Origin: Amphiscolops sp. MND2022
Taxonomy: Eukaryota
NCBI GenBank assembly: GCA_964187785.1
Contig: OZ076409.1
Coordinates: 75,828,001 to 75,892,000, forward strand
Reading direction: 5' to 3'
DNA length: 64,000 bases
In this document: positions 500 through 30,300 of the stretch, piece after piece
How the letters are laid out: every line of letters starts with the position of its first letter
How positions within the stretch are numbered: the first letter of the stretch is position 1
Notes under the pieces: generated by a model
The model's input: the letters and a program-made list of their open reading frames with translations, nothing else
Told to the model about the DNA's origin: nothing
The model's database searches: none
Position numbers and translations under genes: made by a program

Positions 500-699
500 G
501 CAAAAAGCCGCGAACTACGGCCCATACCTTCTCGAGATACGCAGTATAAAGATAACATAATGGTCCAGACATTTTAATGGAGTTGTATCTTGGTAATATG
601 TCTGGATTTGCAGAAAAATCAGCACGTGCCATTTTATACCAAGTTGCTCGCAACGACAATTAATTTAAATCAACGCCCCCCACAAAAATCAACGCCCCC

Positions 700-772
700 C
701 GTCCGTGGGCATGCCGAGGCATGCCCTTCGACGACATGCACCAAAATATGCCCCGAGCGCGTTAGCAGCTAG
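700..772 (+). other. 3' terminal hairpin and CTAG of a short unit (representative; recurs before every junction except 24396, with one arm deleted before 5866)
   Basis: CGTC-CGT-GGGCATGCC-GA-GGCATGCCC-TTC-GACG at 700-733; CTAG at 769-772. Confidence 0.8.
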
Positions 773-6700: not shown

Positions 6701-7145
6701 AACTCATCGGAATACGTTCAATCCATTCCAAAGCGGTTTACTTCCAGCTATAGACTGCAGCAACACTATTCAAGACCATTGTACCCCTTTATATTAGTTT
6801 TGACATTGTATTATTCATCCGAGAGCACAAAGCAGTTGAGTACATTCCATCTCCCTTTCGGGGGAGATGAGAATGTACTCGCTAAAGAACAGGTACTACA
6901 GCCAATTTTTGTATTTATGCGAAGCCATTCTATGCTATTGCACATAACAACTATGCTATTGACTTAATTTTGCCTACACTTTGCTATGACATATGCTAAA
7001 CGTTTGGTCCTTACAACAACATACACATGACTAACGTCAACACCACATACTGTTACCAACGCCCACCGTCCGTGGGCATGCCGAGGCATGCCCTTCGACG
7101 ACGTATGCCAAATACCTTCCAGCGACGCTCGCGCTCCCCGGCTAG

Positions 7146-8534
7146 GTGGTCGGGGCGGTCCCCAGAACGCACAAGGAGGCGCGGGGAGGGTCCTGCGCCG
7201 ACGTAGAATAATTTCATATAATACTAGTATCCTACATGGGTGTTTTAGAAGCGATTTTGGAAACTAACCGTAGGATTTGGATAATTTTTTGCATGCGGCC
7301 TTAACTCGAAATTCTAAGAACTTTTTCCTACTGTCATTTTCCCCTCAAATTGTTTTGTGTTGACTTATGGCCGAAAAACCGGAAATAACGTCCTTTTTAG
7401 ACGTTATATCCGAAGTGTCGTCATAACTTTTTTCCAGGGCATGCTAGCGTTCTTGTTCACTTTTACACTTAGTTGCAGCATCTCGAAATACAACTGGTGG
7501 AAAATTTTGGTTGCATTCGGATCACCCCCCACCGAGATAGAAGGGTTTTCCCCTCCAGTTTTACCCCCCAAATTTGCGAAAAAGCTAATTTTGAGCTTGA
7601 AGCCGAGGATTTAGCGTACCCGCACCCTCCTGATGTTTTGTTGTAAGTATTGGGGTGAATCTGACCACATGTGTGGTTTTCACCCCCAACCCCCCCTGGG
7701 ACCGGAAATGACATTTTTTTGTATTTTTCGGCAGAAATTAGCTTTTTTCATTAGTAGGCAGTCGTTTTAGGGACTCTTAGCAGGATATCGAAATTGAAAT
7801 ACAACCTGATCACAACCCAGAGACAACATGTTGGCCATTTGAAGGTTCAATCATGACCGGAAGTGGGGTCAACCCCCCTTTTTGTGACCGCGTTTTGACC
7901 TCGTGCACCAAAATGCCAACAACGTTAGCCCTAATGACGCATTCAAATCTGTACAAAGAAAGAATGTTAGACAACCGAAGTCCCGGAAGATCTTTAGCAT
8001 ATACCGGAAGTTACCCCCAATGACCGGAAGTTACCCAATGTGACCGGAAATGGTCCAAAAATTAATGTAAAGTTGAATTTTTCACTATTTCAAGACCACT
8101 TCATTGAACATTTTCATTCCCAAAACTAGCGTACTGGCTTGTTTTTTCTGAAATTATGGAAATTGATGAGCTCTATCACCCCCGATAGCCTTCGAAGTTG
8201 ACCTTGCGTCAACTTTGGAGGCTATCGATACTGAAAATGAACATTAAAGTACATTATTGCTCTCGGTTTTTTCCCGTTGTTTTTCCTCAAACATTCTTGA
8301 GACATATACATGGCCGTTAATTGAAATCAATATTTAGCCCATGTTATAGCTGGAGCAGCGAAGCGTTACACAGGCTAGTGTGGTTTTGAAATTACATTAT
8401 TTAAATTAACAAATGACCGTCTTAGTCAACTCCACACATTCATACCAACGCCCACCGTCTGTGGGCATGCTGAGGCATGCCCTTCGACGACGTATGACGA
8501 ATCCACTCCAACGACGCCCGCAGTCCTCAGCTAG
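7146..8534 (+). mobile_element. Divergent non-autonomous unit (1389 bp) with a largely unrelated interior
   Basis: Head GTGGTCGGG, the head hairpin and the terminal hairpin plus CTAG are retained. The standard central blocks are missing, and CCGGAAR repeats are present. Confidence 0.65.
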
Positions 8535-11500: not shown

Positions 11501-12435
11501 AGATATAACGGCATTTTTTGGGAATTTTTTGGAAATTTTTCTAACGGTCCAGCTTATCTTTGCCATTTTTTCAAAAATGTACTCGCCTAAAGGCCTCCCC
11601 TGGCCGGTTTTAATCCCAGCAAAACCATTTGGCCCTAAATACGGAGTTTCAGCGTTCCAGCATTCCCGGGCGAAAAGTTGTGGGACTTAGAAAAATTTCA
11701 AAATTTTTCAAAAAAATTTTTTCCGTTTTCCGCCCTCCCCCCCCCCGAGGGGAAAAGACCCCCCAACCAGTAATTTGAGTGAATTCATGTGGAAAGGCCA
11801 TGTTTAGAGGAGAAAAATGCCGTTTAGATCGTCTTTTTATTTTAACCTGTCGTTGACTTATGTTGTTTTGAAGGTGACCGTTAGATGTGTGAAGCTTGTG
11901 AAAACGTTATTAATTGTGTCTATATTCCTTTCAAAAGTTATTGCGATACACGATGTACAACTCAGAACGTATTTATTCTAATTTCGCAGTTACAATACAA
12001 TTATATAGGTGAATTGGGTATCACTAGCGTAAGAGACGGTTTTACGGAGCGATTATGATCAAAGGCGATACGGTTCGTTGAAAAATATTATTGAAGAAAA
12101 CATTGGTTTTTTCGTAGGTTTTTGTCTAGAATTTTTAAATGTTTTTTCCGTTGGTTATAGGTGTAGGTTATAGGATAGGTTGTTTCAAAGGTCCTTCTTT
12201 GCTTTTCCTGTTCATAGCATAGATTGTTTTTGATGGCAGAAGTCGACGAAGACCAAGCATACGAGTTTTTCTTTTATTCTCGATTTTATTACATCTGCGC
12301 ATTGGTCGTACGGTCGATATTGAGCGTAAAATACGCTCTTCGAAACAATATGTGGCCATCGTCGATCAATTTCTACGTGTAAGTATCGAATTTGCCCATA
12401 TGGTAAAATATAAGAATAGAGGGAATGGGTTTTTC

Positions 12436-12540
12436 AAAATCCGGCTCATCAGAAGTTAGCTTGCGGCGTTATGCTGAAGGCCCTTCTGATGATGCTATGT
12501 CCCCCCTTTTTTAGTGGGTAACCTATGCCCAAATTTTTTT
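12436..12540 (+). ncRNA. Candidate structured RNA or regulatory core, copy A
   Basis: About 105 nt that read as identical in three places (12436, 12978, 55705) while the flanks differ. It contains the stem TCATCAGAAG/CTTCTGATGA with an inner TTAGC/GCTGA stem, then C6-T6 and GGGTAACCTATGCCC. Function is unknown. Confidence 0.4.
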
Positions 12541-12977
12541 CAAGCAAATTTTTCCAGCATTTTTGTTTTTTGAGAGTCTTAACCATAATAAGCAACTGAT
12601 ACATGTTTGTGAAATAATATTATTTTTTGAATTTGTTTTTTGTTGAAAGTTGTTTGTAGAATCTGAATTGTCTTTCCTTGTAAAAGTTATGGTATTATAT
12701 GAGTTTTTAACTGATGTTCTTGAGAATGAATTCGAGCAATAAAAGACTTGAAACCTCTTGTACTGTATGTTTGATGTATGTTTATTTTGTATTGAGAGTC
12801 AAGTAACAAAAGTCAAGTAGCGGAGACTATTACATCTGCGCATTGGTCGTACGGTCATTATTAATCATAAAATACGCTCATTGAGAAAATGCGTGATCAT
12901 CGTCGTTCAATTTCTACGTGTATTTATAATATCTACCTATATGTTACATTATAATAATTGGAGGTGATGGGTTTTAC

Positions 12978-13082
12978 AAAATCCGGCTCATCAGAAGTTA
13001 GCTTGCGGCGTTATGCTGAAGGCCCTTCTGATGATGCTATGTCCCCCCTTTTTTAGTGGGTAACCTATGCCCAAATTTTTTT
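12978..13082 (+). ncRNA. Candidate structured RNA or regulatory core, copy B
   Basis: Same sequence as 12436-12540. Confidence 0.4.
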
Positions 13083-13778
13083 CAAGCAAATTTTTCCAGC
13101 ATTTTTGTTTTTTGAGAGTCTTAACCATAATAAGCAACTGATACATGTTTGTGAAAGAATATTATTTTTTGAATTTGGTTTTTGTTGAAAGTTGTTAGTA
13201 TAATCAGACGTGTCTTTCATTGTAAAACCTTTGATATTATATGAGTTTGTACCTGATGTTCTTGAGATTGAATTCCACCAATAAAAGACTTGAAAACTCT
13301 TGTACTGTATGTTTGATGTATGTTTATTTTGTACTGAGAGTCAAGTAGCAAAAGTTGTTTCATCAGCACATCGGTTTCAAAGTGATGATCTGGTATCTGT
13401 TTTTACCACGAACGCGTGTATTCAATAATCTAACGTTTCTCATCGCTCCATAAGCAAAATGCTCTGACACTAATGTTTCTTCAAAATTCACGTAGGACGA
13501 ATTCGCACAATAAAGGAACTTAATATTATTAATTCTATTTTCGCCTTACAAACGGTGGCAGCGCAAATTTCGTTTACAAAGAACGTGTTTCACTAGTATC
13601 CATGTTACGCTCCGTACTTCCGATCTTTCAAGTTAAAAGCGTTGTGAAATGTTTTGGTTCCATGCGAAATGATACATGTTTCAAAATTCGAATTTATTTA
13701 ATTTTGCAATTCGTCGCTGGCCTAATATTCTAACTTGTTAATTTCATTGGAACAACTGAAACTTGCTGAATGTTAACG

Positions 13779-13802
13779 TCTTTGTTGTTTTCCAGGGTTA
13801 TG
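13779..13802 (+). promoter_or_regulatory. Candidate splice acceptor 4 nt upstream of the Rep-helicase ATG
   Basis: TCTTTGTTGTTTTCCAG|GGTT-ATG here and TTTCATATTTTCAG|GGAT-ATG at 56411-56431, with identical spacing in both elements. Confidence 0.6.
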
Positions 13803-16800
13803 GCTCCAAATAGACGTCGAGGACGTCCAAGAGGTAGCAATAATCGTAATTCCTGTGTTCAATGTAGAGTTTTTATATCACGTTCAGAAACTCTTTGCGG
13901 AGGTTGTGCACTTCAACAAGAGACACAGGAGATAGATGTCGCTTCGGATGTACCCGACAATGAATCAGCTCGCTCCTTACAACTAATTGTCCCTGTTATG
14001 TGTTCTTTATGTCAAGAAAATGAAGTTTCAGCAGATTCTCTTTGCCCTTTATGTTGTCCAATTACCTTGCCTAATATAACTTCTGCAGAGTGTCAAAAAT
14101 GCAGACGAATACCACCAACCGAACTCAATACAATTCGAATTCAGGAAATAAAACGAACAACTTTTGGATGTTTTGTTACTGGACGACCCGATGAAACTGT
14201 GAACATTTGTAATGAATGTGTTTTGTACTCGATACACAGTCAACGGCCAACATGGGCTGCAGCGTGGCCGAGTGTAATCCTTGATTTTCTCACAGGAAAG
14301 TATAACGGATCTGTAAACTGTAAACCGTTTCATAAAGTTTTACCAAGGAGCATTATGCAGCAATATCAACATCTTTTGCCGCAATCAACGTCTGGCAGTG
14401 AAGCAACTGTTTTCGATGATCTGACATCCAAATTAAATGACTTCAATGTATTGAGAGAAGGATTGTCGATTGAAGGAGTCAGAGAAGCACACAACAAGTA
14501 TTGCTTCCCAGAAGTAAGATGCCCATTTGGATGCACGGAGTTTGTAGGAGAAACTGGCCTGGTTCCTTTTCAGTATTTCTTGCAAAAGTTAGACACGCGG
14601 TTCAAATTTAACAGTATAAATTGGAAACACCAACTGAGATGTGTACGACCAGACTGGCTACTGCAATATATTCATAATGCCGACTTCATTATCAAGCCTC
14701 ATTTGTATTTTGACAGTGTTAAGGGCCTTTGTATTTCAACATGTCGATTTCACAATGGTGGTTCAAGCAAGCAGTATGTCCACCCTCCCGCGAATCCAAC
14801 TGGGAGACTTCCCTCGAAGTTTCCAGACCGCTTGGGCCCTGCAACTATTACTTACAACTGCTATAAACCGGCTAAACCAAACTTTTCGACGCACACATAT
14901 TCCATGGGTATAGCAAAAGGAAATTTTGGTGGTATCAGCTCAACTACAATTTCATGCAAGCGAAGGTGGGACGTCGCATTTGGTCCAGATGACGTTGCGA
15001 GAGAATCTTTGTGCAGTAATATGCGCAAAGATATAAAACCACATCTCCAAAAACTTGTTCAAAGACGTGAGTTGTCGCAAGAACTTTTCGATAGCATCAC
15101 CTCATGCAACACTGTCCTGAGTCCTCAAAGTATAACGAATTGCCTACAATACACTACATCTGTGTCCTTTCAACCGTCCTTGGCTGTCAAAGAAATACAA
15201 GAAAAAGGAGTCCAGATAGCATATTTCCCGTTATTCGCACACCCCTACGATGATTACGGCTGTCATCCATCAGATACAGCTATTAACAATACCCAACACC
15301 TGCATTTGTGGTGTTTTGTTATCATGTTTTCTTTGAGTTCCACCTTTCACCTCAAATTCAATCAATCTACGTCTAATGAAGAACCGCTTTTGAAAAAGTT
15401 GTTTTCATTAGTGCTGTGTTTCAAAAATAAAGTTGTTGACACAAAAAGAAAACAAGAGATAGATTCCTGTTTACAAAATTTGTCTGATGACATGAACATC
15501 GACTTCGTCCAAAAGTTGAGTTCCCTTCTAAACACCATTTCGTGTTGCAAAAACAATGACGTTAACGACAGACAGAATGTTGAAACTATTTTAATGTCGT
15601 CTAATAATGATGATATTGTCAGCTTTGTGAACAGCAATGAAAGAAGTAACCCTGATGTGTTTCTGCCAGATAGAGTAATCACACAAGATAGAGAGGCCAC
15701 ATATGAGCTCCGTTCTATCACTTTGTTGGAAGGAACCATTGCTAGAACGGTTGTCCGACACGGACATCATTTTGGTTGTTGGTGGATATATACAAGTAAT
15801 TCCAAAGTGCCAGTTAAAGTGGACGTAAACGACACAGCAACGATGGCAAAATTTCATTCAGCGTGGAACTCGTGTCATTATGAATTAATCGATTCTGAAA
15901 AAATACGTGAGTCTAAATATCAATATTTGGAACATCTTGGTGGACAAGGTAAATTCATTTGTGAAGACCACCAATGTCCACTAACAGTCGTCAATCGGAA
16001 GCTCTCAATCATGTGTAGTTTCATAGAACGTTGTCCTCGTAAAGCAGCATGGCTCTGTCCTGTGACTGATTGCAGATCCTCTGTTTGTCAGAAACACTTT
16101 AAAACAGAAATTCTCAGTGATGAGCGAATTTTCATTAGAGCTACTACCGCAGAAACAAACAGCCAAAGTTCAACAAGTAATATAACTTTGGAGTTGAATC
16201 AACCCGCTGATGATCATTCAGATGTATCGGATCCCGAATCGGAAACAGATGAATTCTCGTTTGTCAATTTTGCAACTGATTCCGGTCCAGTCAACGATGA
16301 TGATGGTTTGCATAATACCGATTCTGGAGATGCTCCTACAGTTTGTGATACATTCGATAAGAGTATACCTACCCACGTACTACTAAACTCTGACTGTCAT
16401 GTTCTACAAAGACACAGTCACAGGAATGAAAGAAGCAAAAACAATACAAGGTTCCTACAAAACATTGTTGCATCCTCGGTTGGTGAATCAGTGCCTTTAC
16501 TTTACCCAGACGCTGCACTTTTTCCAACTCACTTTTTTCACGAACAAAAAGACAGAACCATTACTGGCGCCCTTCCTGCCCCACTCTATAATCAAACGCA
16601 AAGCAAATTATTCAATTTCGCAGATATTGAGGAACACAAGAAAACCGCCCTGCTGAACCCTAATCTTCTACAATCGACAGACATCCGAAGTTTGCAAACA
16701 TCATTCGATGCAGTTTTCAACAAAAACCTTAGTTTTACTGACACCAGAATTGTTTTGAATCGCGGATTTCAAGAAGTGTCGGAGAAGAAGCAAAAATCGA

Positions 16801-19800
16801 TATCACCAGATAATACGAGACTTCAATTTGACAGTGCAGACTCCAGAGTTAGAGTAAATGAATTAGCTGCTCTTCTCTCGGAAGAACCTGCTACATTCTT
16901 CCTCACCTTGACGTGTAACCAGAAAGAACATTTTGGTGTAGCACCCCTGTTCGAAGCACTGGAAAGAAATTTCAATAGAAACAATAAAGAAGAATGGGAA
17001 AAGGCCGTGCAAGCAGAAATTGTTCTGTTCACACGAGCGTGGTATCGTTCAGCAAATGCAATTATGGAATACATTGAAAAATCTCCGGAGAAACCCTTGG
17101 GAACCGTCACGAAACTGTGGTATCGATTCGAATTCCAGTCTACCAAAGGAAATTTACCTCATATACATGCTGTCATTTGGACAAAAGAAAACCATGACGA
17201 ACTACAACACAAAGTGTCCTGCTCTGGCTCGTCGGCGTTATTTGAGTTGCACAAAATTGCCGCAGAAACAAATATGATACCAATAGAAGAAGTTTCTGAC
17301 ATTTGGCACTTATTGATGTCAGTACAGACACACTCCTGTGAAAAAGCCAACTACAGATGCCATAAAGTTATTAAAAACGATGGTTCTAGTCTTTGCAGGG
17401 TTCCTAGGTACCCTCATTCTAATAAGTACTCATGGCGAAAAGTTCCTTCATACCATTCGGACGAAGCACTGGAGAAACTTCATCACCTTGACCTGGCAGT
17501 ACCTTCTCGTAGTAGAGACCACACCTATGATGTTTGCTCGATACTTCAAGGCGGTAAATACGAGTACCCGGCTTCTTCGGATGAACACTTGTCACCATTC
17601 AATGTTCTTCTTTTTGTGCTGACAAAATCATCTCAAAATCTGCAACTTTGTGACGATTATCTGTCTGCCAGATATATTGCTAAATATGCAGCTGGCATTG
17701 AAGAACGAGCAGACGCTCGCGTGGATCCTGTTACATTCAGAGACATCAATGTTCATACGAAGGGAATCAGAAACATCAAACTTGCTGGAGTAAAACAACA
17801 AAATAAAGTTACAGACAAAAAGACTTTGGTTCAGATAATTCCCCTTGTGGAATCCATCTGGTGGTTATTGGGTTTCAATTATGTATACAGTTCGGTGAAA
17901 TTTATACATTTGTCAACCCATGAAAAAACTGAGAGATCCACAGTTTTGAAAAATAGACCTACAGCACAACCGTCTGCTTCATTACCGCTACATATAGTTA
18001 AAAATGCCACCTTGCCACCATTCCGACAATACACGCAATCACAGCTTTTATTATTCAGAGACTACCAATCAAGTGATTACGCCAGTTGCAAAATTTCAAT
18101 TTTTTGTGGTCGACCTCCTCCTCTGTTGTTCGTTGACAACCCACGTTTGTATTTCACATGGTTCGCACGATGTCACGTCAAGAAACCTGAGCTTAAAATT
18201 ACAACTGACGTGAACACTTCCTTTTGGATTGATTTGTTTGGTAATGCTGTATACTTGAGGAAGAATTATTTGAACGACTTCAATGAATATTTGCAAAGAG
18301 TAACATCTGAAGGTCATCCAAGTCTATACAAGTTCAACGCTGACACTTCAATGATTATGTTACAAAATGACAGAAGTGGGCTGAAAACAATAGATGACTC
18401 TTTAGTTCAAGTAGTAACATCGAACATCTTACCGTCCAATCCATTCAAATTCCTAGTACACTTCGTTCTATCGTATGGACACTTTGAAACTGAAACGGAA
18501 CTGTTCAACCAATCAAATTTCTTAGAAGTCCTCCAACATTCCAAACTTTTGCCCCAAAGAGATGCGTACAGTGATCAAGATGCCTACACATTGATTCGAA
18601 AGTATGTTTTATCCGAATTGAAATTTTTACCTGGCGCAAGTCGTTCCTTCGATCGTCATCTAATTGCAAGTTATGACCTCTTTACAAATCTTGTGCTGAG
18701 TAGAGATATTCAAAATTTCACACCGCCACTAGTTTTACATCGTGCTATATCGGAGGAAGAAGAGGTAAAGTACCAGTTGTTTAATTATGAAAAAAGAAAG
18801 AGATGTGTGCAAGGAAGTCTGTTGAATAATGCTCTGACGCCGCTGACATGTTATCAAGATCAGATTGTGAATGCAACACGACAGAATCCTTTCCAATACA
18901 CATGCAATTTCCCCCGAGCTGTAGGACAATCAGATGAGTCACTAGAATTTCAAAAAAGAGTTTTCAACAATTGTCTCATTAAGTTAGAAGAGTTCATTAA
19001 TGGAAGTCAAGGCTTTGTGAAACACCAATCCTTTTTAGGACGACCAGGAAGTGGAAAAACTCTCGTATGTACCATGCTCTTCATGCGAGCCATCGCCAAA
19101 GGACTCAATGGTTCAATCACATGCCTAAGTGGTGAACGCGCTCAACAACTTGGCGGTGAGCATGTTCACAAAATGTTCAAGTTTCGTGTCAATAGAAGTA
19201 AAGTACCCGAACACATGGCTAGCCAGAGTATCAATGCCCTTCTAAGAGACGTAACACGGTTCACCGATTTAGAACGTTTAGAAGTCCTCTTCATTGATGA
19301 AGTTGGGCAGTTGAACAGCGAACTACTTTGCGCAATGGAAATCGTACTGCAGCATGTGCGAGATAATAAACTGCCAATGGGTGGTGTGTTCACAATAATG
19401 AGTGGGGACCCCAAACAACTGAAGCCGCCTGATGGTTCTCTAGTTTGGTTGTCACCCAAATTACTCACTAACTATGACTTTCATTACTTCAGACATTACG
19501 TTCGAGCAATACCTGGTTTACTGCGTGAAGTTCTAACTCGACTTGACGAAACTGAAATTTCCGAGTCTGAAGCCACAGAAATAGCTGAAAGAATAACATC
19601 TGCATGTGTGATCAAGTCGTCCTGGAGCGACGAAACAGATACTTTTGCAATGCGCGTTTTCAGCACTCGAGCAGCTGAACAACAAGCTGTATTACTACAT
19701 TCCCAGAAAATTACCAATGATGTCAATTGCACTTGTGTCAAATTATCAGCTCAAGATGAAGAAAGTTCGACTGGTTCTTCCATTTGGCGTCAAGCATCTC

Positions 19801-20819
19801 CGCAAAATAGCAAATTCATAGATTACAACTCCATTACTCCCAATAGTGTTTTATTATATAAAGGTGCACTTTTGAGGTTTACCGCAAACATTGCGAATAT
19901 CCAAGCAAGACAAGGGCAACTATGTGTTACCCTAGAGACTCCAACTGAAATGACAAACACTTTAGACGTAATGATAGCACCTCCAGGCTGCAGAAAGGTA
20001 ACAACTTTCAATGAAATGCTCTTGGTCGCTTCCGGATGGCGGAGAGTCACTATTACTAAAACGTACACACCTGTTCTTACCAACAAAACTTGTTTTCTGA
20101 GACGTTTTACATTCCCCATAAAAAACTACGTCGCTTCTACCATTCACAAGTGCCTGGGTGACACTTTTCCAAAAATTGTAACAAAGATTTCACTCACAGA
20201 TCCCGATTATAAAATTTGGGAAAAGGAGCAGCTCTTGGTTCTTCTGAGTCGTGTCACTAAGTTAGACGAAATAACTTTCATTGGAAACAAAACAGATATA
20301 GAGACAACATTGTCGACAATAATCCAAAAAAAGAACTGCTGGACGGATTTCATTGATAACTTCTTATCAAAACTAACAACAGACAATCAATTACCTGGGA
20401 CATTGAATCTTCTCGCCAGCCACTTTTCACCTTGGAACATCATTTTGCCAGAAGATGAAGTCGGCTTTGTTTACTTGCTCATCAGTACAAAAATTGCAGG
20501 TGTATTTTTTATTGGCGAAACTGTTGGTCTGAGAAAATGTTTAAAAGCAATAAATAGTGGCTATGGTCCCGAGAAAACGCGACCCATCGAAAGAAGACCT
20601 TGGGGGTTGCTGGCCTTTGTGAGTGGCTTCACAACAGGAAATTTACTAACAAATGCAAGACAAAGAAAGTTTCTTGAAGCAACCTTGATTTATGAAACAT
20701 CCCTGCTCGGCCTCAATATTACAACAGAATCAATTTATCGTCTGTTTGAGAAAAGTGCCAAAAGCTTCGGAAAGATTAATCAACTACAGATGAGTGTAGT
20801 TCAATGTGGCCATGTATGA
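13800..20819 (+). CDS. Helitron-like Rep-helicase: Cys-rich zinc-binding N-terminus, HUH (Y2) Rep, PIF1-like SF1 helicase, C-terminal SLX1-like GIY-YIG domain
   Basis: Uninterrupted ORF (track 13770-20819). The ATG at 13800 is preferred because it follows a pyrimidine tract plus AG and aligns with the paralog's start. Rep motifs: FFLTLTCN, EFQSTKGNLPHIH (HUH), YIAKY. Helicase motifs: GRPGSGKT, FIDEVGQL, GDPKQLKPP, STIHKCLGDT, LLSRV. C-terminus: GFVYLLIS..FFIGET..NSGYG..TRP..RPW..V.GF. Confidence 0.9.
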   Translation: MAPNRRRGRPRGSNNRNSCVQCRVFISRSETLCGGCALQQETQEIDVASDVPDNESARSLQLIVPVMCSLCQENEVSADSLCPLCCPITLPNITSAECQKCRRIPPTELNTIRIQEIKRTTFGCFVTGRPDETVNICNECVLYSIHSQRPTWAAAWPSVILDFLTGKYNGSVNCKPFHKVLPRSIMQQYQHLLPQSTSGSEATVFDDLTSKLNDFNVLREGLSIEGVREAHNKYCFPEVRCPFGCTEFVGETGLVPFQYFLQKLDTRFKFNSINWKHQLRCVRPDWLLQYIHNADFIIKPHLYFDSVKGLCISTCRFHNGGSSKQYVHPPANPTGRLPSKFPDRLGPATITYNCYKPAKPNFSTHTYSMGIAKGNFGGISSTTISCKRRWDVAFGPDDVARESLCSNMRKDIKPHLQKLVQRRELSQELFDSITSCNTVLSPQSITNCLQYTTSVSFQPSLAVKEIQEKGVQIAYFPLFAHPYDDYGCHPSDTAINNTQHLHLWCFVIMFSLSSTFHLKFNQSTSNEEPLLKKLFSLVLCFKNKVVDTKRKQEIDSCLQNLSDDMNIDFVQKLSSLLNTISCCKNNDVNDRQNVETILMSSNNDDIVSFVNSNERSNPDVFLPDRVITQDREATYELRSITLLEGTIARTVVRHGHHFGCWWIYTSNSKVPVKVDVNDTATMAKFHSAWNSCHYELIDSEKIRESKYQYLEHLGGQGKFICEDHQCPLTVVNRKLSIMCSFIERCPRKAAWLCPVTDCRSSVCQKHFKTEILSDERIFIRATTAETNSQSSTSNITLELNQPADDHSDVSDPESETDEFSFVNFATDSGPVNDDDGLHNTDSGDAPTVCDTFDKSIPTHVLLNSDCHVLQRHSHRNERSKNNTRFLQNIVASSVGESVPLLYPDAALFPTHFFHEQKDRTITGALPAPLYNQTQSKLFNFADIEEHKKTALLNPNLLQSTDIRSLQTSFDAVFNKNLSFTDTRIVLNRGFQEVSEKKQKSISPDNTRLQFDSADSRVRVNELAALLSEEPATFFLTLTCNQKEHFGVAPLFEALERNFNRNNKEEWEKAVQAEIVLFTRAWYRSANAIMEYIEKSPEKPLGTVTKLWYRFEFQSTKGNLPHIHAVIWTKENHDELQHKVSCSGSSALFELHKIAAETNMIPIEEVSDIWHLLMSVQTHSCEKANYRCHKVIKNDGSSLCRVPRYPHSNKYSWRKVPSYHSDEALEKLHHLDLAVPSRSRDHTYDVCSILQGGKYEYPASSDEHLSPFNVLLFVLTKSSQNLQLCDDYLSARYIAKYAAGIEERADARVDPVTFRDINVHTKGIRNIKLAGVKQQNKVTDKKTLVQIIPLVESIWWLLGFNYVYSSVKFIHLSTHEKTERSTVLKNRPTAQPSASLPLHIVKNATLPPFRQYTQSQLLLFRDYQSSDYASCKISIFCGRPPPLLFVDNPRLYFTWFARCHVKKPELKITTDVNTSFWIDLFGNAVYLRKNYLNDFNEYLQRVTSEGHPSLYKFNADTSMIMLQNDRSGLKTIDDSLVQVVTSNILPSNPFKFLVHFVLSYGHFETETELFNQSNFLEVLQHSKLLPQRDAYSDQDAYTLIRKYVLSELKFLPGASRSFDRHLIASYDLFTNLVLSRDIQNFTPPLVLHRAISEEEEVKYQLFNYEKRKRCVQGSLLNNALTPLTCYQDQIVNATRQNPFQYTCNFPRAVGQSDESLEFQKRVFNNCLIKLEEFINGSQGFVKHQSFLGRPGSGKTLVCTMLFMRAIAKGLNGSITCLSGERAQQLGGEHVHKMFKFRVNRSKVPEHMASQSINALLRDVTRFTDLERLEVLFIDEVGQLNSELLCAMEIVLQHVRDNKLPMGGVFTIMSGDPKQLKPPDGSLVWLSPKLLTNYDFHYFRHYVRAIPGLLREVLTRLDETEISESEATEIAERITSACVIKSSWSDETDTFAMRVFSTRAAEQQAVLLHSQKITNDVNCTCVKLSAQDEESSTGSSIWRQASPQNSKFIDYNSITPNSVLLYKGALLRFTANIANIQARQGQLCVTLETPTEMTNTLDVMIAPPGCRKVTTFNEMLLVASGWRRVTITKTYTPVLTNKTCFLRRFTFPIKNYVASTIHKCLGDTFPKIVTKISLTDPDYKIWEKEQLLVLLSRVTKLDEITFIGNKTDIETTLSTIIQKKNCWTDFIDNFLSKLTTDNQLPGTLNLLASHFSPWNIILPEDEVGFVYLLISTKIAGVFFIGETVGLRKCLKAINSGYGPEKTRPIERRPWGLLAFVSGFTTGNLLTNARQRKFLEATLIYETSLLGLNITTESIYRLFEKSAKSFGKINQLQMSVVQCGHV

Positions 20820-20888
20820 GTGAATCTTTCCAACTTTATTAAAACACACTATGAACTAATGACTGTATACTATATGTTAAAGACTTAG

Positions 20889-20927
20889 GAGTTTGCCGGG
20901 ATTACGCAGTGATCCCAAGGCAAACTC
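20889..20927 (+). other. Conserved hairpin ~70 nt downstream of the Rep-helicase stop (element 1)
   Basis: GAGTTTGCC-GGGAT-TAC-GCA-GTG-ATCCC-AA-GGCAAACTC. A counterpart lies at 63482-63512. Confidence 0.7.
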
Positions 20928-21513
20928 TACTTGAAAATTTAAAATGTTAATTGTTGCATCATCATTATATAACGTTTGTTGAGCCTATCTTTGCTGTTGC
21001 CATTGTCATAATATTCTGCTTTGTAAATTATATTATTAACCTGTCAACCTTTGCAATGAATTGAAATACAAAAAAAAATGGAATTCCAAATTCATCAAAT
21101 CCGATTGGAATCCAAATAAAGAAAATGATCGAAATGAGAGAGTAAAATATTGCACTTCAAACTTTTTTCAACAATCCAACAAGAAAGCATGAGAGAGAAA
21201 GAACCTTTTGATAAAATACATGTCTAAATAAATGAAACTCTTTTTATCCATGGTTTTTCTCTTACACGTGTGTATATTTCTGGAAATTTAACGGGAAAAA
21301 ACAAAAAAAATAAGGTTGTGGACATTTATTTCATGACAAAAGTTTTTTGATTTAGAAAATGCGTGCATATTTTTGATTTATCCGTGCAGATGATACGTAT
21401 GACGAAAGATAATATGTTCGAGTTAAACATACAAGCATAACCTGATTCATCAGATAACAAACTAACCATTTTTTTCAATTTTTCAGATCTTCTGATCCAT
21501 CTAACTCTGCAAG

Positions 21514-22435
21514 ATGCCAATTATCAATAAAAACTTGTCCCTGGCGGAAGCAGCTGCGAGAACAACCGGAAAGTTGACAGCAATTGATTTAGATGACATC
21601 CAAGAAGGAGCTAACACTGATCGGCGATATTTACTGTGTACAATTTTGCATGCCAAAAAGTGTTCGAAAGCTGTAACATTTTTCAAGATGACACATGGTC
21701 AGAAAAACAAGCAAGAAACGACTTTCAACAGATTCGTTCTACTTGGAGTTCTCGGAAAAGACAAAGTAGTGGCTGTCTTCACGTACACTCAAGTGGAGAG
21801 TGTTGAATTGCTTAGATTTTGCAGCAATTTAACTCCTGGAAGTGCGTGCGCCATGATACGTCCAAAATTTGATCACAAGTTTATGGGTTCAGTCTCAACG
21901 ACCCCTATACTAAACACAGCTGAACCTCTGGTACCGCTGATAATGAAGACTTACCCCCCTGTCGCTTGCCCCCTCAACGTTTCAACCCCTGATTTTCTTC
22001 ATTTCAACATTGTAACTAAATCATTGGTGTTGTCAAACGTGGACGCTGTGTCTCTAGTTTGTAACGGCTTGTTCTGTGACGGCCAACCGAAAACCGAATG
22101 CCCCTGCTTGGAAGTCGACAATAGAAAGTCCAGCTGGGTTTTAACTGCAGACGTTGCTTGCCAAGAAATTTGTCACAGAGCGAAAATACGATCCAAAAAT
22201 TTGATAACACTCTTCGCACCAAAATGTAAATCAGCGGATCCCGACAAATCTGATTTCGATGTGCTCACACTGTCTGACTGCGTCGATAATTGTGTGACTA
22301 AAGTCAATTCTGCTAACGGATGGCTTCTTTTTGGGTGGATGAAACCTACAGAAACATCTTTGGAGGCGACTAACTATGACTTGGAAGTCCACATAGTCTC
22401 GATTCGACCCTTTGCAGAAAGCGACGTAGATGAAG
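21514..22435 (+). CDS. ORF2 exon 1: accessory protein of unknown function with a Cys cluster (CNGLFCDG..CPC); possibly an OB-fold/RPA-like ssDNA-binding protein
   Basis: 308-codon ORF (21514-22440) whose N-terminus MPIINKNLS recurs in element 2 as MPIINKDLS. A candidate donor G|GTTAGA at 22435/22436 lies just before the in-frame TAG. The product call is inference only. Confidence 0.75.
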
Positions 22436-22570
22436 GTTAGAAATATAAAAAATTTCCACTTTTACACTAACTGCCATGTTTGGACAAAAAATTTTTACAA
22501 TGAAATAATGCTGGCTAATACTTTATAAGCATAAATATATAACTTTCAAATTCAACTAAATTGTTTGCAG

Positions 22571-22710
22571 AAGCATACAAACTTCTCCAATACGTGTTGC
22601 CGCAGCAACCAACCCCGGAGTTAGCTGGAGTTAGCGACAATAATCAAAACGCTACAACATCATCAGATACTACATCAGCAAATGAATCCACTGGGACTGG
22701 CAGTGGTTGA
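22571..22710 (+). CDS. ORF2 predicted exon 2 (low-complexity S/T/N-rich tail)
   Basis: An AT-rich 135 nt intron (22436-22570) ends TTGTTTGCAG. A phase-1 join gives an open frame EAYKLLQYVLPQQPTPELAGVSDNNQNATTSSDTTSANESTGTGSG-stop (TGA ends at 22710). Confidence 0.6.
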
Positions 22711-23259
22711 AAACTTTACAATTAATCAACAAATGACAGAGCTGCATCAGTACATATGTTTGTCGTAGAGTTACTTATTCACTTCCAATCAAAAAATCAA
22801 CGTTTATTTGCTGATATCAAATTGAACTAAATATAAAAACTGATTGAAAATAAGTTTGCTGAAATGATAATGTTATGTTGATTTAGTACACTTGTCTTGC
22901 CAAAAGTCGTGTTAGTTGATGTTAATGGTCTCTTGCTTAATTTGTCTCATCGTATTATATAGACTGTGACATTATTTTGGTTTTTTTGAACGTCTTGCAA
23001 TTAATATTTCTGTTCATTTAACGTTTTTTCTAAGAATTTCTTCAATAATCAAAAATCCTCAATTTAGCATTGATTAGAAAAGGTTAGTGAGTCGAAAAAG
23101 TAAGCAGTTATTAGTTTTCGCAAGTGAATTTAAAAGCCTTCAGTAATCTTTTTGCGTATTATCATATCAATCTTTGAGACTTATCAAACTTTTTAAAAGT
23201 TAACCTGATAAGATTGTCTTTTTCTGAAACTGACTCACACATACCGACACGACGCCCAC

Positions 23260-23337
23260 CGTCCGTAGGCATGCCGAGGCATGCCTTTCGACGACGTATG
23301 CCAAACACCTTAAAACCGACGCGCACTCTTTCGCTAG
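23260..23337 (+). other. 3' terminal hairpin and CTAG end of element 1
   Basis: CGTC-CGT-AGGCATGCC-GA-GGCATGCCT-TTC-GACG followed by CTAG at 23334-23337. A GC-rich hairpin before CTRR is the established Helitron 3' signature, although the spacing here (~40 nt) is longer than usual. Confidence 0.75.
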
Positions 23338-24396
23338 GTGGTCGGGTGTTTTACCTTTACAGAGTAGTGCGAGGCCGGGTAGGGTCCCGTGACGAGCTTG
23401 AAGAATAGCCTGCTAAAAATATACATGTTGGGGGGGGGTCTACGGAGACGATCTCGAAAATGAACCGTTAGAATTTATTCAAACTTTGCATGCGGACATA
23501 GAATCAAAATGTAAGAACTTTTTCCTGCTGGCACTTTTCGCTCCATACCCTGTGACGGAAGTTATGAGCAAATGTATGTCGAAATCACCCATTTTTCGCA
23601 TCTTTTCAGTCGCTGCTCCTCAGCCATTGGAGCCAATAGGCCGAAACTTTTTGTGTGAGGTACAAATGAAGTGGGCTACAGGATGGCCAAAAATTTTTGG
23701 CCAGGTCCTAATACAACGGGAGATATGATAGAAAATATACACCAAAAAAGGTGATTTTTTGACACTTTTTATCATGACTTCCGAAGTGCCCAATGGAATA
23801 GGTAGTGCCTATGGATAAAAATGAATGGTTTTATGTTTAATCGAAAGAGGAAAAAATTTTGTTTTTTTTGGCCAAAAAAAAAGTTCTACAAAAGTTCTAC
23901 AAAAATTCGAAAAATTTAGAATTTTTCCAAAAAAAAGGTTTTTTCGTCTTTTTTGATGTTTTTTCACATTTTGAGGTCAAAAATGAGGTACCCGAGCACT
24001 TACGCTGACTTTTTAGGGGAATTTGACACATTAAATTTTTATTTTTGGTTAGTGATTACACTTTTAAAGTTTTAATCCCAAATTACTGCAATCTTTTCTC
24101 AGTTGTTGGAATTCTATGTTTTTTGTTAAATGACATGTAGAAAGATCGCCGATGTTCCGGGAGAACGCGAAGCGTTTCGGAGGAAGATTGGCGACAAACG
24201 ATAAAAGTCTGTGCAACTTATGTGCTTCCAATGAGGTGCTTGGTAGAATTATCAAGATGAAAAAATAACTTTTTTGAGGTAGTTTGTTGTGAAATGAAAA
24301 CGATTAAAGTTTACAATTTTAAGTTGCACCAACTTCAGTTTCAATCAAGTATTGTCTGAATAGGCCTTACTGGTAGTTGGTACCTGCCTCCACTGG
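23338..24396 (+). mobile_element. Divergent non-autonomous unit (1059 bp) ending in CTGG without the terminal hairpin
   Basis: Head GTGGTCGGG resembles the 7146 unit. The interior is unrelated to standard units. It ends CCACTGG and is joined directly to a standard head GTGCCGGGATTTC. Confidence 0.55.
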
Positions 24397-27300
24397 GTGC
24401 CGGGATTTCTATTCGATAAAGTATGTGGCGCGTGTGGGTAGGGTCCCTGGCGCGCTCTTGGGTATGGTGTTCACCAGCTAGGAAATAGGGGTCGATTTTT
24501 CGGGATCTCCTAAACTAGCCACACGATTTGGCTGAAATTTGGCACACGTACTCCCCTCGGCATGGTGAAGATGATTTCCTACTGACGTTTTTCCCGCAAA
24601 ATTTTTTTTGTTGTCCAAAATAACGGTTTTTGGGGTAAAATTTTGAATTTTTTTTAAATTTTATCTTATATCTCGCCACGGGTTTACGCTAGCGCTTCAA
24701 AACCCTGCTAAAGAAAGCTTGCAAACTGTCTCAGGATTGCTGTGTGAAATTTTCAGCTCAATCGGACTCAAACTCGGGGAGATATAGCGTTTTTCCGGAG
24801 CGGGGGGGTTTCATTTTTCTAACGGTCCAGCTTATCTTTGCCATTTTTTCGAAAATACACTCGCCTAAAGGCCTCCCCTGGCCGGTTTTATTCCCAGCAA
24901 AACCATTTGGCCCTAAATACGGAGTTTCAGCGTTCCAGCATTCCCGGGCGAAAAGTTGTGGGACTTAGAAAATTTCAAAAATTTTCAAAAATTTTTTTTT
25001 CCGTTATTTGGGCCCCCAAAGTGGGGGAAAAGACCCCCCAACTAGTAAAGCAAGTGAATGCATGTGCAAAGCCCTTGTTTAGAGGAGAAAAATGCCGTTT
25101 AGAACGTCTTTTTATCTTGGCTCAACGTTGACTTATGACGTTTTGAAGGTGATGTTTGGAGGTGTAAAGCACGTGAAAAGTAAACGTTATGAGTATTTAT
25201 CTGATCTGAAAGCCATTGAGATGCAACCTGTTTTGCTCAAAACGTAATTCATATCAGTTTGGTAGTCAATCAACACCCTTTGTTGTCGTTTGACATACTT
25301 TTTTGTTGTTATAATAAAAAATTTTGTGTATTTATTCATTTTTTTCTCATCAAATAACTTGAAACAGTTGAGTACATTCCATCCCCCCTTCACGGGGGAG
25401 ATGAGAATGTACTCGCAAAAAGCCCCGAACTACGGCCCTTACCTTCCCGAGCTACGCAGTATAAGGATTACATATTGGTTCCGACATTTTCATAGAGTTA
25501 AATCTTGGTAATCTGTCTGGATATGCAGAAAAACCAGCACGTGCTTTCTTATACCAAGTTGCTTACAACGACAATTATTTTATATCAACGCCCCCATATT
25601 TATCAACGCCCCCCGTCCGTGGGCATGCCGAGGCATGCCCTTCGACGACGTATACCAAGATATGTTCGAGCGCGTTAGCCTAGGTGCCGGGATTACTATT
25701 CGTTCGAGTATGTGGCGCGTGTGGGTAGGGCCCCTGGCGCGCTCTTTTATTTCGGGTACACCTACTCCAAATTCACGATGTGATTTCGACGATCTCGTAA
25801 ACTAGCCACACGATTTGGCTGAAATTTGGCACACGTACCCCCCTCGGCACGGTGAAGATGATTCCCTACTGACGTTTTGCCCGCTAAACATTTTTTGTTG
25901 ACCAAAATAACGGTTTTTGGGGGAAAATTTTGAACTTTTTTTAAATTTCGTCTTATATCTCGCCACGGGTTTACGCTAGCGCTTCAAAACCTTGCTAACG
26001 AAAGTTTGCAAACTGTCTCAGGAATGCGGTGTGAAAATTTCAGCCCAATCGGACTTAAACTCGAGGAGATATAGCGTTTTTCCGGAGCGGGGGGGTTTCA
26101 TTTTTCTAACGGTCCAGCTTATCTTTGCCATTTTTTCGAAAATGCACTCGCCTAAAGGCCTCCCCTGGCCGGTTTTATTCCCAGCAAAACCATTTGGCCC
26201 TAAATACGGAGTTTCAGCGTTCCAGCATTCCCGGGCGAAAAGTTGTGGGACTTAGAAAATTTCAAAAATTTTCAAAAAAATTTTTTCCGTTATTTGGGCC
26301 CCCAAAGTGGGGCAAAAGACCCCCCAACCAGTAAAGCAAGTGAATGCATGTGGAAAGCCCTTGTTTAGACGAGAAAAATGGCGTTTAGAACGTTTTTTTA
26401 TCGTAACTTGACATTGACTTTTGTCGTTTTGAAGGTGACCGTTAGATACGGAAAATTGATGTTTTGAGTGTTTATCCCATCTGAAAGCCATTGAGATACA
26501 ACATGTTTTGCTCAAAACGTGTTTCATTGGAGTTTCGCTGTCCATTAACACCCTTTGGTGTCTTTTGACGTAATTTTCGTTTCTATAATAACAATTTCTT
26601 TGTGTATTTATTCATTTTTTTCTCATCAAATAACTTGAAACAGTTGAGTACATTCCATCTCCCTTCCCGGGGGAGATGAGAATGTACTCGCTAAAGGTCA
26701 GGAACTACGGTCTATATCTTCCACAACACAAAAGAGATTGCAAATTGTTTCAGTTTGTCGCAGAAAACTTCTTTTTGCACTCTGTGACTCGACAAAGTGA
26801 ACGTTTCTTACTTACTTTGAATCTCACCATACCACAACTCATCTCTAACGTCAACGCCCCCCACACACATCAACGCCCCCCGTCCGTGGGCATGCCGAGG
26901 CATGCCCTTCGACGACGTATAGCAAAATATATTCGAACGCGGTAGCAGCTAGGTGCCGGGATTTTCTATTCGTTCGAGGAAGTGGCGCGTGTGGGTAGGG
27001 CCCCTGGCGCGCTCCTGTGTTTTCGGTTTTCCTACTCCAAATTCACACCCCAGTTATCTCCGATCTCGTAAACTAGCCATACGATTTGGCTGAAATTTGG
27101 CACACGTACCCCCCTCGGCACGGTGAAGATGATTCCCTACTGACGTTTTGCCCGCTAAACATTTTTTGTTGACCAAAATAACGGTTTTTGGTGGAAAATT
27201 TTTGATTTTTTTTAAATTTCATCTTATATCTCGCCACGGGTTTACGCTAGCGCTTCAAAACCTTGCTGACGAAAGTTTGCAAACTGTCTCAGGAAAACGG

Positions 27301-30300
27301 TGTGAAATTTTCAGCTCAATCGGACTCAAACTCGGGGAGATATAGCGTTTTTCCGGAGCGGGGGGGTTTCATTTTTCTAACGGTCCAGCTTATCTTTGCC
27401 ATTTTTTCGAAAATGCACTCGCCTAAAGGCCTCCCCTGGCCGGTTTTATTCCCAGCAAAACCATTTGGCCCTAAATACGGAGTTTCAGCGTTCCAGCATT
27501 CCCGGGCGAAAAGTTGTGGGACTTAGAAAAGTTCAAAAATTTTCAAAAAAATTTTTTCCGTTATTTAGGCCCCCAAAGTGGGGGAAAAGACCCCCCAACC
27601 AGTAAAGCAAGTGAATGCATGTGCAAAGCCCTTGTTTAGAGGAGAAAAATGCCGTTTAGAACGTCTTTTTATCTTGGCTCAACGTTGACTTATGACGTTT
27701 TGAAGGTGATGATTGGAGGTGTAAAGCACGTGAATAGTAAACGTTATGAGTATACATCTGATCTGAAAGCCATTGAGATGCAATATGGTTTGCTCAAAAC
27801 GTAATTCATGGCAGTTTGGCAATCAATCAACACCCTTTGTTGTCGTTTGACATACTTTTTTGTTGTTATAATAAAAAATTTTGTGTATTTATTCATTTTT
27901 TTCACATCAAATAACTTGAAACAGTTGAGTACATTCCATCCCCCCCTTCCGGGGGAGATGAGAATGTACTCGCAAAAAGCACCGAACTACGGCCCTTACC
28001 TTCCCGAGCTACGCAGTATAAGGATTACATATTGGTTCCGACATTTTCATAGAGTTAAATCTTGGTAATCTGTCTGGATATGCAGAAAAACCAGCACGTG
28101 CTTTTTTATACCAAGTTGCTTACAACGACAATTATTTTATATCAACGCCCCCATATTTATCAACGCCCCCCGTCCGTGGGCATGCCGAGGCATGCCCTTC
28201 GACGACGTATACCAAAATATGTTCGAGCGCGTTAGCCTAGGTGCCGGGATTTCTATTCGATAAAGTATGTGGCGCGCCTTGGGTAGGGTCCCTTGCGCGC
28301 TCTTGGGTATGGTGTTCACCAGCTAGGAAACAGGGGTCGATTTTTCGGGATCTCCTAAACTAGCCACACGATTTGGCTGAAATTTGGCACACGTACCCCC
28401 CTCGGCACGGTGAAGATGATTTCCTACTAACGTTTTTCCCGCAAAATTTTTTTTGTTGTCCAAAATAACGGTTTTTGGGGGAAAATTTTGAACTTTTTTT
28501 AAATTTCATCTCATATCTCGCCACGGGTTTACGCTAGCGCTTCGAAACCCTGCTAAAGAAAGCTTGCAAACTGTCTCAGGAATGCTGTGCGAAAATTTCA
28601 GTTCAATCGGACTTAAACTCGGGGAGATATAGCGTTTTTCCGGAGCGGGGGGGTTTCATTTTTCTAACGGTCCAGCTTATCTTTGCCATTTTTTCGAAAA
28701 TGCACTCGCCTAAAGGCCTCCCCTGGCCGGTTTTATTCCCAGCAAAACCATTTGGCCCTAAATACGGAGTTTCAGCGTTCCAGCATTCCCGGGCGAAAAG
28801 TTGTGGGACTTAGAAAATTTCAAAAATTTTCATAAAATTTTTTTCCGTTATTTGGGCCCCCAAAGTGGGGGAAAAGACCCCCCAACCAGTAAAGCAAGTG
28901 AATGCATGTGCAAAGCCCTTGTTTAGAGGAGAAAAATGCCGTTTAGAACGTCTTTTTATCTTGGCTCAACGTTGACTTATGACGTTTTGAAGGTGATGTT
29001 TGGAGGTGTAAAGCACGTGAATAGTAAACGTTATGAGTATTTATCTGATCTGAAAGCCATTGAGATGCAATATGGTTTGCTCAAAACGTAATTCATGGCA
29101 GTTTGGCAATCAATCGACACCCTTTGTTGTCGTTTGACATACTTTTTTGTTGTTATAATAAAAAATTTTGTGTATTTATTCATTTTTTTCTCATCAAATA
29201 ACTTGAAACAGTTGAGTACATTCCATCCCCCCTTCCGGGGGAGATGAGAATGTACTCGCAAAAAGCACCGAACTACGGCCCTTACCTTCCCGAGCTACGC
29301 AGTATAAGGATTACATATTGGTTCCGACATTTTCATAGAGTTATATCTTGGTAATCTGTCTGGATATGCAGAAAAACCAGCACGTGCCTTTTAATACCAA
29401 GTTGCTTACAACGACAATTATTTTTTATCAACGCCCCCATATTTATCAACGCCCCCCGTCCGTGGGCATGCCGAGGCATGCCCTTCGACGACGTATACCA
29501 AGATATGTTCGAGCGCGGTAGCAGCTAGGTGCCCGGATTTCTATTCATTAAAGTATGTTGCGCGTGTGGGTAGGGCCCCGTGGCGCGCTCTTGTGTCCCT
29601 GTTCTCATAACTGCAATTTCCGGCAGCATTCTGAGCGATTTTCTAAACTATCCATACGATTCGGCTGAAATTTGGCATGTGAGTTCCTATGACAGTTCTA
29701 AGAAACATTTCCTACTGGCGTTTTGCCCGGAAAATTTTTTTTGTTGACTTATAACGGTTTTTTTGGCCAAAAAATGCAATTTTTTCAAAAAAAATTTTTT
29801 TCGGAGCCCATATCTTTTTTCAGGGTGCCCGGAGCGGGACGCGTTAAACTGATTATAAACTCTACGGTTCATGGGCTTTACGGAGAACCTAGGCTCGTTT
29901 CGATCGGACAAATAGTCTTTGAGATATAACGGCATTTTTTGGGAATTTTTTGGAAATTTTTCTAACGGTCCAGCTTATCTTTGCCATTTTTTCGAAAATG
30001 TACTCGCCTAAAGGCCTCCCCTGGCCGGTTTTAATCCCAGCAAAACCATTTGGCCCTAAATACGGAGTTTCAGCGTTCCAGCATTCCCGGGCGAAAAGTT
30101 GTGGGACTTAGAAAAATTTCAAAATTTTTCAAAAAAATTTTTTCCGTTTTCCGCCCTCCCCCCCGAGGGGAAAAGACCCCCCAACCAGTAATTTGAGTGA
30201 ATTCATGTGGAAAGGGCATGTTTAGAGGAGAAAAATCCCGTTTAAATCGTCTTTTTATTTTATTCTGTCGTTGACTTATGTTGTTTTGAAGTTGATGTTT

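Follow-up and report, generated by a model that had tools for sequence, protein, structure and literature searches.

Two described groups of Helitron-like elements stand closest to the locus analysed here. Helentrons (HLE2 subgroup b) are described as joining a Rep domain, a Pif1 helicase and an extra C-terminal endonuclease, of the apurinic/apyrimidinic (AP) type, in one open reading frame (ORF) (PMC4067079, PMC11417382), and Helraiser, a member of HLE1, is reported to have a 3′ hairpin and a CTAG end and to form circles with a head-to-tail junction (PMC4778049). The window (the whole stretch of DNA analysed, 64,000 nt from Amphiscolops sp. MND2022, contig OZ076409.1, positions 75,828,001–75,892,000, + strand) contains two autonomous Helitron-like elements, referred to as elements 1 and 2, whose Rep-helicase (RepHel) proteins end in an SLX1-like GIY-YIG domain; the remainder is a same-strand, head-to-tail array of short units. 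The pattern as a whole is explained best, with somewhat more confidence than doubt, by a self-targeting Helitron-like lineage in which intact members carry an accessory GIY-YIG nickase and the copies in the window carry a dead one. This explanation joins the anatomy of the elements, their ends, junction neighbours that are unlinked, and a catalytic site that is lost in the window copies and retained in most relatives. What makes the locus valuable is less the dead nuclease than the lineage as such, together with the element ends and the hint of insertion targeted to junctions.

Two frames on the + strand (13770–20819 and 56363–63412) each extend over 2,349 codons without a stop, and their RepHel products are 60% identical (Table 1). 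Each carries in a single ORF an HUH two-tyrosine Rep domain, a Pif1 helicase and a C-terminal GIY-YIG domain, in that order. Rep motifs 1–3 and helicase motifs I–VI are found in the RepHel frames, and Helitron_like_N and PIF1 score above the Pfam cut-off in both, if weakly (30–35 bits). On these sequence features the lineage is assigned to the Helitron-like superfamily, and it lacks features that define each described group, namely the 5′ TC and motif 2 of HLE1 and the AP endonuclease, inverted repeats and motif 2 of HLE2. The HLE1/HLE2 consensus of Rep motif 2 is given as ExQxRG(S/L)(P/L)HxH (PMC4067079). In element 1 this motif (from 17124) reads EFQ, seven residues, HIH, and among 76 long proteins of the lineage the spacer between ExQ and HUH is seven residues in 60 and nine in 13, three give no match, and a spacer of five occurs in none. 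An Arg immediately precedes motif 2 in both window proteins (WYR), as in HLE2 and Helentrons. Helraiser was not detected by the Rep search at E ≤ 10, and the family profile scores it at 67 bits, against 81 bits for bacterial Pif1.

Compared with Helentrons, as the cited passages describe them, the lineage has in common the Arg before motif 2, an OTU domain in some relatives and a separate ORF that possibly binds single-stranded DNA. It differs from them in its GIY-YIG rather than AP endonuclease domain, in having no terminal inverted repeat longer than 7 nt, in GTG and CTAG ends that are not T-rich, and in a motif 2 spacer of seven or nine rather than five. DUF6570 is unlisted in the Pfam scans of window proteins and relatives, scans in which all Helitron models score weakly on this lineage. 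With HLE1 (Helraiser, PDB 7LCC) it shares a 3′ CTRR behind a hairpin, the two-tyrosine Rep with Pif1, non-autonomous partners that have both ends in common, and a second ORF downstream, whereas its 5′ end is GTG rather than TC, its hairpin lies 39–52 nt rather than ~11 nt from the end, and its flanks in the window are family members rather than A|T. The proto-Helentron of Phytophthora is described with a 3′ CTAG too, together with an HLE2-type protein, but it starts with TT and inserts at A|T. The Paramecium Helitrons, a third clade with ORFs of 9–10 kb, are described as telomere-targeted (PMC13085455); their oriented, repeat-targeted insertion resembles that proposed here, although their target is the telomeric repeat. 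Neither of the two is reported with a GIY-YIG domain in the passages cited. In a literature search, made outside Repbase, subscription journals and the figure and table images of HELIANO, GIY-YIG was mentioned for one Helitron-like element only, and in passing: the HLE2 family HelenSM92 of Sphagnum magellanicum, to which terminal inverted repeats and TT sites are ascribed (PMC11417382). It is compared here by description, and the text on it that we cite is silent on fusion, SLX1-likeness or activity of the domain. Four further sources (PMC6431247, PMC3627910, PMC12910113, 10.64898/2026.09.17.752431) mention GIY-YIG in other contexts only, as far as the cited portions go. A sequence-only reading that preceded this analysis had proposed a distinct lineage, and its distinctness from HLE1 and HLE2 is upheld by motif and terminal signatures.

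The same reading had recognised an SLX1-like GIY-YIG pattern at the end of both proteins. The motifs it quoted are real: GFVYLL starts at residue 2232 in both frames (window positions 20463 and 63056) and RPW at 20595 and 63188, in frame at the C-termini of the uninterrupted ORFs. Taken alone, the window tails score poorly (the Pfam GIY-YIG model gives E = 0.017 with element 2 and misses element 1, for which the PDB search is headed by two SLX1-family chains, at E = 0.48 and 0.65), and the identity of the domain is established through relatives. A search with the C-terminal 250 residues returned 10 relatives besides the window's own protein, and 6 of the 10, when scanned, pass the Pfam GIY-YIG cut-off. 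For the tail of one relative SLX1 structures rank first (E = 1.5e-10), and a 42-sequence family profile matches SLX1 at E = 6.4e-13, with five SLX1-family chains and two UPF0213 proteins among its matches. An AlphaFold model of the C-terminus of element 1, based on a 6-sequence alignment, has a mean predicted local distance difference test score (pLDDT) of 54.6; its helicase half is unreliable and only the tail was used. The tail (model residues 239–359, pLDDT mostly 68–89 with one loop near 50) has the GIY-YIG topology. It aligns with SLX1-family chains 7WME, 6SEH and 7CQ2 at Z of 6.3–6.8 and a root mean square deviation of 4.2–4.6 over 103–106 residues, a mitoribosomal protein tying with these chains at Z 6.8, and Foldseek returns two SLX1-family chains (E = 3.5e-3 and 9.2e-3). 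In all, the sequence evidence points strongly, and the predicted structure moderately, to the SLX1-like identity that had been proposed.

The SLX1/UPF0213 nucleases (4XLG, 7CQ2, 6SEH, 7WME, 1YWL) are the top sequence matches and among the top structural matches of the tail, and their active-site layout is that of the intact relatives. Unlike these nucleases, the domain is fused here to a transposase, is followed by no RING domain and has lost its active site in the window copies. The C-terminal RING domain looked for as a mark of SLX1 orthologues was not found, the proteins ending ~45 residues past the Glu helix without a Cys cluster. Nor is the domain the AP endonuclease of Helentrons, a point on which the sequence-only reading was also correct: Exo_endo_phos is absent from the Pfam scans of the window proteins and 28 relatives.

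In Slx1 of Candida glabrata (CgSlx1), catalysis is assigned to Tyr14, Tyr26, Arg36, His40 and Glu79, and E79Q is reported inactive (PMC4407285). At these positions element 1 has Y, F, C, I and E (codons at 20472, 20508, 20538, 20550 and 20676) and element 2 has Y, F, E, I and V (codons at 63065, 63101, 63131, 63143 and 63269), leaving two of the five catalytic residues in element 1 and one in element 2. The earlier claim that the domain looks degenerate was right about Tyr26, His40 and the Glu, including survival of the later Glu in element 1 only, and had overlooked the loss of Arg36. Both window copies are very likely dead nucleases, more degenerate than first stated. An alternative Glu register, given by profile–profile alignment, was set aside, since 115 of the 116 intact proteins have Glu in the corresponding column of the multiple alignment. 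That the window tails still cut through altered chemistry is hardly credible: Tyr14 persists in both and Glu79 in element 1, and Tyr26 and His40 are described as varying among natural GIY-YIG enzymes (PMC4407285), but Arg36 is replaced by Cys or Glu, and element 2 is without the metal ligand whose E79Q substitution abolishes CgSlx1 activity.

The sequence-only reading had further supposed a lineage whose domain does not cut, and this part is not borne out by the relatives. In an alignment of 42 near relatives, both window copies counted, 41 reach the tail and 31 of these keep Tyr-Tyr-Arg-His. A profile of the helicase end and tail returned 365 clusters (50% identity level, E ≤ 1e-30), and the counts given next concern the best 150 of the 365. 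Further Rep-helicase/GIY-YIG fusions, for which a search had been suggested, are plentiful among them: the tail is present in 146 of the 150, a frequency biased by a ranking that favours tail-bearing proteins. Tyr-Tyr-Arg-His is kept in 116 of these 146, and all five catalytic residues in 115 of the 143 relatives with the five columns filled. The Glu is kept in 115 of the 116 Tyr-Tyr-Arg-His proteins versus 4 of 30 degenerate ones; the catalytic site is lost as a block, repeatedly, and the fold is retained. On a rough, helicase-only FastTree phylogeny (153 rows, 3 short rows dropped), loss of the Arg takes 14 parsimony steps against a mean of 30.8 with shuffled labels, indicating that the losses are many and clade-forming. 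The window's own nine-protein clade shows a gradient, with one intact protein, four in which the Arg is missing and four in which Tyr26, Arg and His all are; a single clade uniting the four fully dead proteins is not rejected (p = 0.052 in the approximately unbiased test), and a convergent His-to-Ile change in two window subclades was considered. Nuclease death appears as a derived and recurrent state, not as the norm of the lineage.

Styela clava supplies one member of the lineage, and the nearest Atlas cluster comes from eukaryotes, diatoms being the commonest among five known hosts; no relatives were found in viral contigs, by scans and by the junction-hairpin motif, or in phage records. 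The protein P0005, whose site is intact, is 58–61% identical overall to the window copies. Four relatives, P0037 and P0039 (intact), P0104 (dead) and P0272 (near the window proteins), seem to share one contig, which would allow, and does not demonstrate, supply of the nuclease in trans. Some relatives (P0139, P0017, P0198) have an additional domain, either an OTU protease at the N-terminus or a Ulp1 peptidase behind GIY-YIG, the OTU domain of P0139 scoring above the cut-off.

Dead tails seem to spread, and death of the site does not appear to amount to decay of the element. The subfamily of element 2 has 13 members, with the dead site in all 11 listed members that reach the tail, and in a second dead subfamily, of seven members, the listed members that reach the tail all share the dead site. 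Over the last 120 residues mean identity is 94% and 98% in the two subfamilies, similar to the enzyme cores; within that of element 2, the Rep and helicase windows are 93–98% identical and the variable regions 80–88%. Between elements 1 and 2 the GIY core is 66% identical, with a nonsynonymous divergence (dN) of 0.28 and saturated synonymous sites, and the C-terminal helices are looser (32% identity, dN 0.72). It is quite improbable that the tail merely lingers, as a neutral relic, in elements that are decaying or parasitic. The poor conservation of the C-terminal helices would suit such a relic, as would the several degenerate database matches that are fragments, but both ORFs are stop-free with Rep and helicase motifs intact, the GIY core is held at the identity just given despite synonymous saturation, and clades of 4–7 degenerate clusters exist, each less than 50% identical to the others.

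Unlikely as well, if less so, is the view that the dead domain was repurposed to bind branched DNA, the hairpin or the junction, as the sequence-only reading had proposed, and that such binding explains its conservation. The tail is under constraint, its net charge is +7 and +3 in the two window copies, basic residues occupy the CgSlx1 Arg35 and Arg38 positions in both, and the position four residues ahead of the Glu is Arg in 90% of 21 strongly degenerate tails versus 54% of 116 intact ones. The strongly degenerate tails, however, lose positive charge (mean −1.8 versus +2.7 in the intact set, p = 3e-9), 71% of them delete the Gly loop after the His-Asn motif, the hydrophobic core mostly staying, and a metagenomic relative with an intact site (L001, described below) adjoins the same junction. 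With charge lost in this way, the end state is more likely to be a structural remnant.

The ends of the elements are defined by 34 junctions, all on the + strand, of which 33 read CTAG|GTG and one CTGG|GTG; 33 of the 35 occurrences of CTAGGT in the window are junctions. GTG is the 5′ terminus after all 34, where HLE1 has TC. At the 3′ side there are 33 CTAG ends with a hairpin (one half-deleted), at the distance given above and in agreement with the CTRR and hairpin of HLE1, and one CTGG end without. The outer pair of the hairpin is A-T in place of G-C in two full hairpins (the end of element 1 and one other) and in the half-deleted one. Junction regions overall fold no better than shuffles (z −0.26 and −0.90), and the case for the hairpin comes from its conservation and this swap. 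The longest exact inverted match between the first 60 and last 100 nt is 5–7 nt in all 33 units, mismatched repeats lying outside the search.

The 32 short units in the window are 1,059–1,389 bp long and 40–99% identical (median 66%). Element 1 opens with 881 bp that are 95.7% identical to one short unit and closes with a hairpin region (last ~60–75 bp) that is 89–98% identical to unit ends, and the first 797 bp of element 2 are 94.6% identical to the preceding unit. Since ~800–880 bp of 5′ sequence are common to the autonomous elements and particular units at 95%, the units are read as non-autonomous partners. The flanks at all 34 junctions are other family members, the window containing neither an array edge nor an empty site. 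Across the junction, subtypes correlate at 0.09 (permutation p = 0.09, no linkage) versus 0.32–0.89 at boundaries at least 18 columns away, and linkage at chance level across junctions points to insertion into the family's own junctions. Only 3 of 30 adjacent pairs are at least 92% identical, indicating that the array is not a simple concatemer. In a metagenome scan, 67 pattern matches reduced to two loci, L001 and L002, of which L001 alone reaches a 3′ end. L001 is a distant relative with an intact site, an ORF2 homologue and an unrelated 3′ flank; it ends in CGCTAG, directly adjoining a unit-type 5′ end. The precise junction at which the sequence-only reading had hinted does exist, and it is common to the window array and L001.

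That the array is instead a satellite, host-derived or left by an old rolling-circle concatemer, which recombination at some conserved motif has homogenised and shuffled without junction-targeted insertion, is improbable. Tandem Helitron arrays from aberrant rolling-circle replication are described (PMC12001565, PMC12628747), long higher-order duplications occur within the array, and the units have a palindrome that the autonomous element is without. Linkage nevertheless breaks at the junction, although a longer and more conserved block 39–90 bp upstream would be a better crossover site, and three distinct 3′ ends (the hairpin type, the CTGG unit at 24396 and L001) abut the GTG start. The published arrays, as those two sources describe them in the parts cited, consist of 2–7 monomers, or of truncated copies that vary at the 5′ end and agree at the 3′ end.

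In the self-targeting lineage favoured here, and by analogy with Helraiser, Rep would nick at the junction, Pif1 would peel off one strand and the hairpin would halt synthesis at CTAG, giving a circle whose junction reads CTAG|GTG. Because the array junctions look like the circle junction, Rep would insert there: we infer that it transfers the strand into an existing chromosomal junction, such that the family would target itself and build mixed arrays. The intact GIY-YIG domain, in the position held in Helentrons by the AP endonuclease, may be a structure-selective nickase with an accessory role, acting on the branched intermediate of single-strand insertion to process the flap or loop that remains. 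The domain of the window copies would be a folded, non-cutting module with a structural role and perhaps residual DNA contact, and the cutting step would be skipped, carried out by host nucleases or supplied in trans from intact relatives. The best reading is that Rep does the targeting and that the nuclease is dispensable in cis.

Several points weigh against this explanation. Self-targeting and the precise site of the cut inside CTAG|GTG are both read solely from junctions internal to the array, the pattern that defines a junction was chosen post hoc, after the sequence had been viewed, and the 3′ end is known from one relative only (L001), L002 stopping short. What the intact nuclease does is argued by analogy with SLX1, and the window tails retain Tyr14, a basic surface and, in element 1, Glu79. 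Exchange of 3′ segments could explain part of the high tail identity within subfamilies, in which the N-terminal windows diverge most. The window copies may reflect one loss or two under the test given above, some degenerate matches are fragments and may be decaying pseudogenes, and supply in trans would depend on a co-residence that is itself deduced from the apparent shared contig.

We know of no settled role for the extra endonuclease in Helentrons. The present lineage appears to represent an independent second endonuclease capture, with live and dead versions in near-identical protein backgrounds, and natural live/dead pairs, such as P0005 and the window copies, make the question directly testable. 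Beyond protein matches, the window adds both ends, the non-autonomous partners and a candidate target site. If correct, an HUH transposase that inserts at its own family's junction would be a new route to satellite DNA and, with a fixed junction target, a possible site-specific insertion tool. A bolder view, which we put forward tentatively and with more doubt than confidence, is that of a separate major branch of rolling-circle transposons in eukaryotes, characterised by SLX1-type capture independent of the AP endonuclease of Helentrons, own-junction insertion, satellite-like arrays of whole mixed elements and recurrent nuclease-dead subfamilies whose spread relies on cutting by intact relatives in the same genome. 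With Pfam scores this weak and ends that are non-canonical, existing Helitron annotation tools would probably overlook these elements.

Table 1. Coordinates of the elements, coding regions, domains and arrays in the window.
Feature	Coordinates	Strand	Remarks
Partner-element array, left part	1..11107	+	short, non-coding, head-to-tail units
Autonomous element 1	11108..23337	+	12,230 bp, GTGCCC to CTAG; junction at each end
RepHel-GIY-YIG ORF, element 1	13800..20819	+	frame open from 13770; ATG at 13800 likely
HUH Rep domain, element 1	16830..17729	+	motif 1 at 16896; two-tyrosine YIAKY at 17673
Pif1-like superfamily 1B (SF1B) helicase, element 1	18990..20294	+	Walker A at 19038; motifs I–VI
SLX1-like GIY-YIG domain, element 1	20448..20816	+	Tyr14, Glu79 kept; Tyr26>Phe, Arg36>Cys, His40>Ile
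ORF2, element 1	21514..22440	+	308 aa, conserved
3′ end, element 1	23267..23337	+	subterminal hairpin, outer pair A-T (G-C in most units), then CTAG
Partner-element array between the autonomous elements	23338..53844	+	units 1,059–1,317 bp, mixed subtypes
Autonomous element 2	53845..64000	+	cut by window end; junction at 53845
RepHel-GIY-YIG ORF, element 2	56429..63412	+	frame open from 56363
SLX1-like GIY-YIG domain, element 2	63041..63409	+	Tyr14 kept; Tyr26>Phe, Arg36>Glu, His40>Ile, Glu79>Val
ORF2 start, element 2	63973..64000	+	begins MPIINK, as ORF2 of element 1

Within the array, a higher-order duplication (39651–44865 versus 42206–47415, 94.6% identical over 5.2 kb, with a two-unit period) indicates secondary amplification after the array was assembled. 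The odd 1,059-bp unit at 23338–24396 has the CTGG end and is without the usual hairpin, and its last bases resemble the 3′ end of L001. A near-perfect palindrome of 43–46 bp (for example 25370–25413; z −6.1) gives 31 matches between 456 and 53581; most short units have it ~300 bp upstream of their 3′ end, and it is present neither in element 1 nor in the part of element 2 inside the window. We also considered whether the array might be a cluster of RNA genes at which the nuclease is aimed, and discarded this: the window contains no tRNA or Rfam gene, two sub-threshold small nucleolar RNA (snoRNA) matches lying in 9800–13800.

ORF2 of element 1 has eight homologues and is matched at 27% identity (E = 2e-29) by the ORF in the corresponding place of L001. 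Its Atlas features lie at 0.90–0.92 to the POT1, CDC24 and MEIOB OB families with a low recognition score, and sequence searches of Pfam and PDB gave no match; an OB-fold protein binding single-stranded DNA is suggested as a lead only. In L002 an open frame at 3735–4208 lies downstream of RepHel, and the second gene of the L002 subfamily may be a different one.

The N-terminal third of RepHel (13800–16350 and 56429–58900) contains several Cys/His clusters that are conserved in the family and match no Pfam model. Upstream of RepHel, element 1 has two copies of a 540-bp non-coding segment (12287–13355; 90%) and element 2 has one (55552–56073; 86%), and 12001–12281 is 80% identical to 54674–54961. 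Such similarity far exceeds that at synonymous sites, which are saturated between the two elements, and suggests that 5′ segments were exchanged recently. Shortly 5′ of the likely ATG of both ORFs in both elements (~13795, ~21488, ~56425 and ~63936) lies a pyrimidine tract followed by AG that resembles a splice acceptor and may mark an intron in the 5′ untranslated region or a trans-splicing site.

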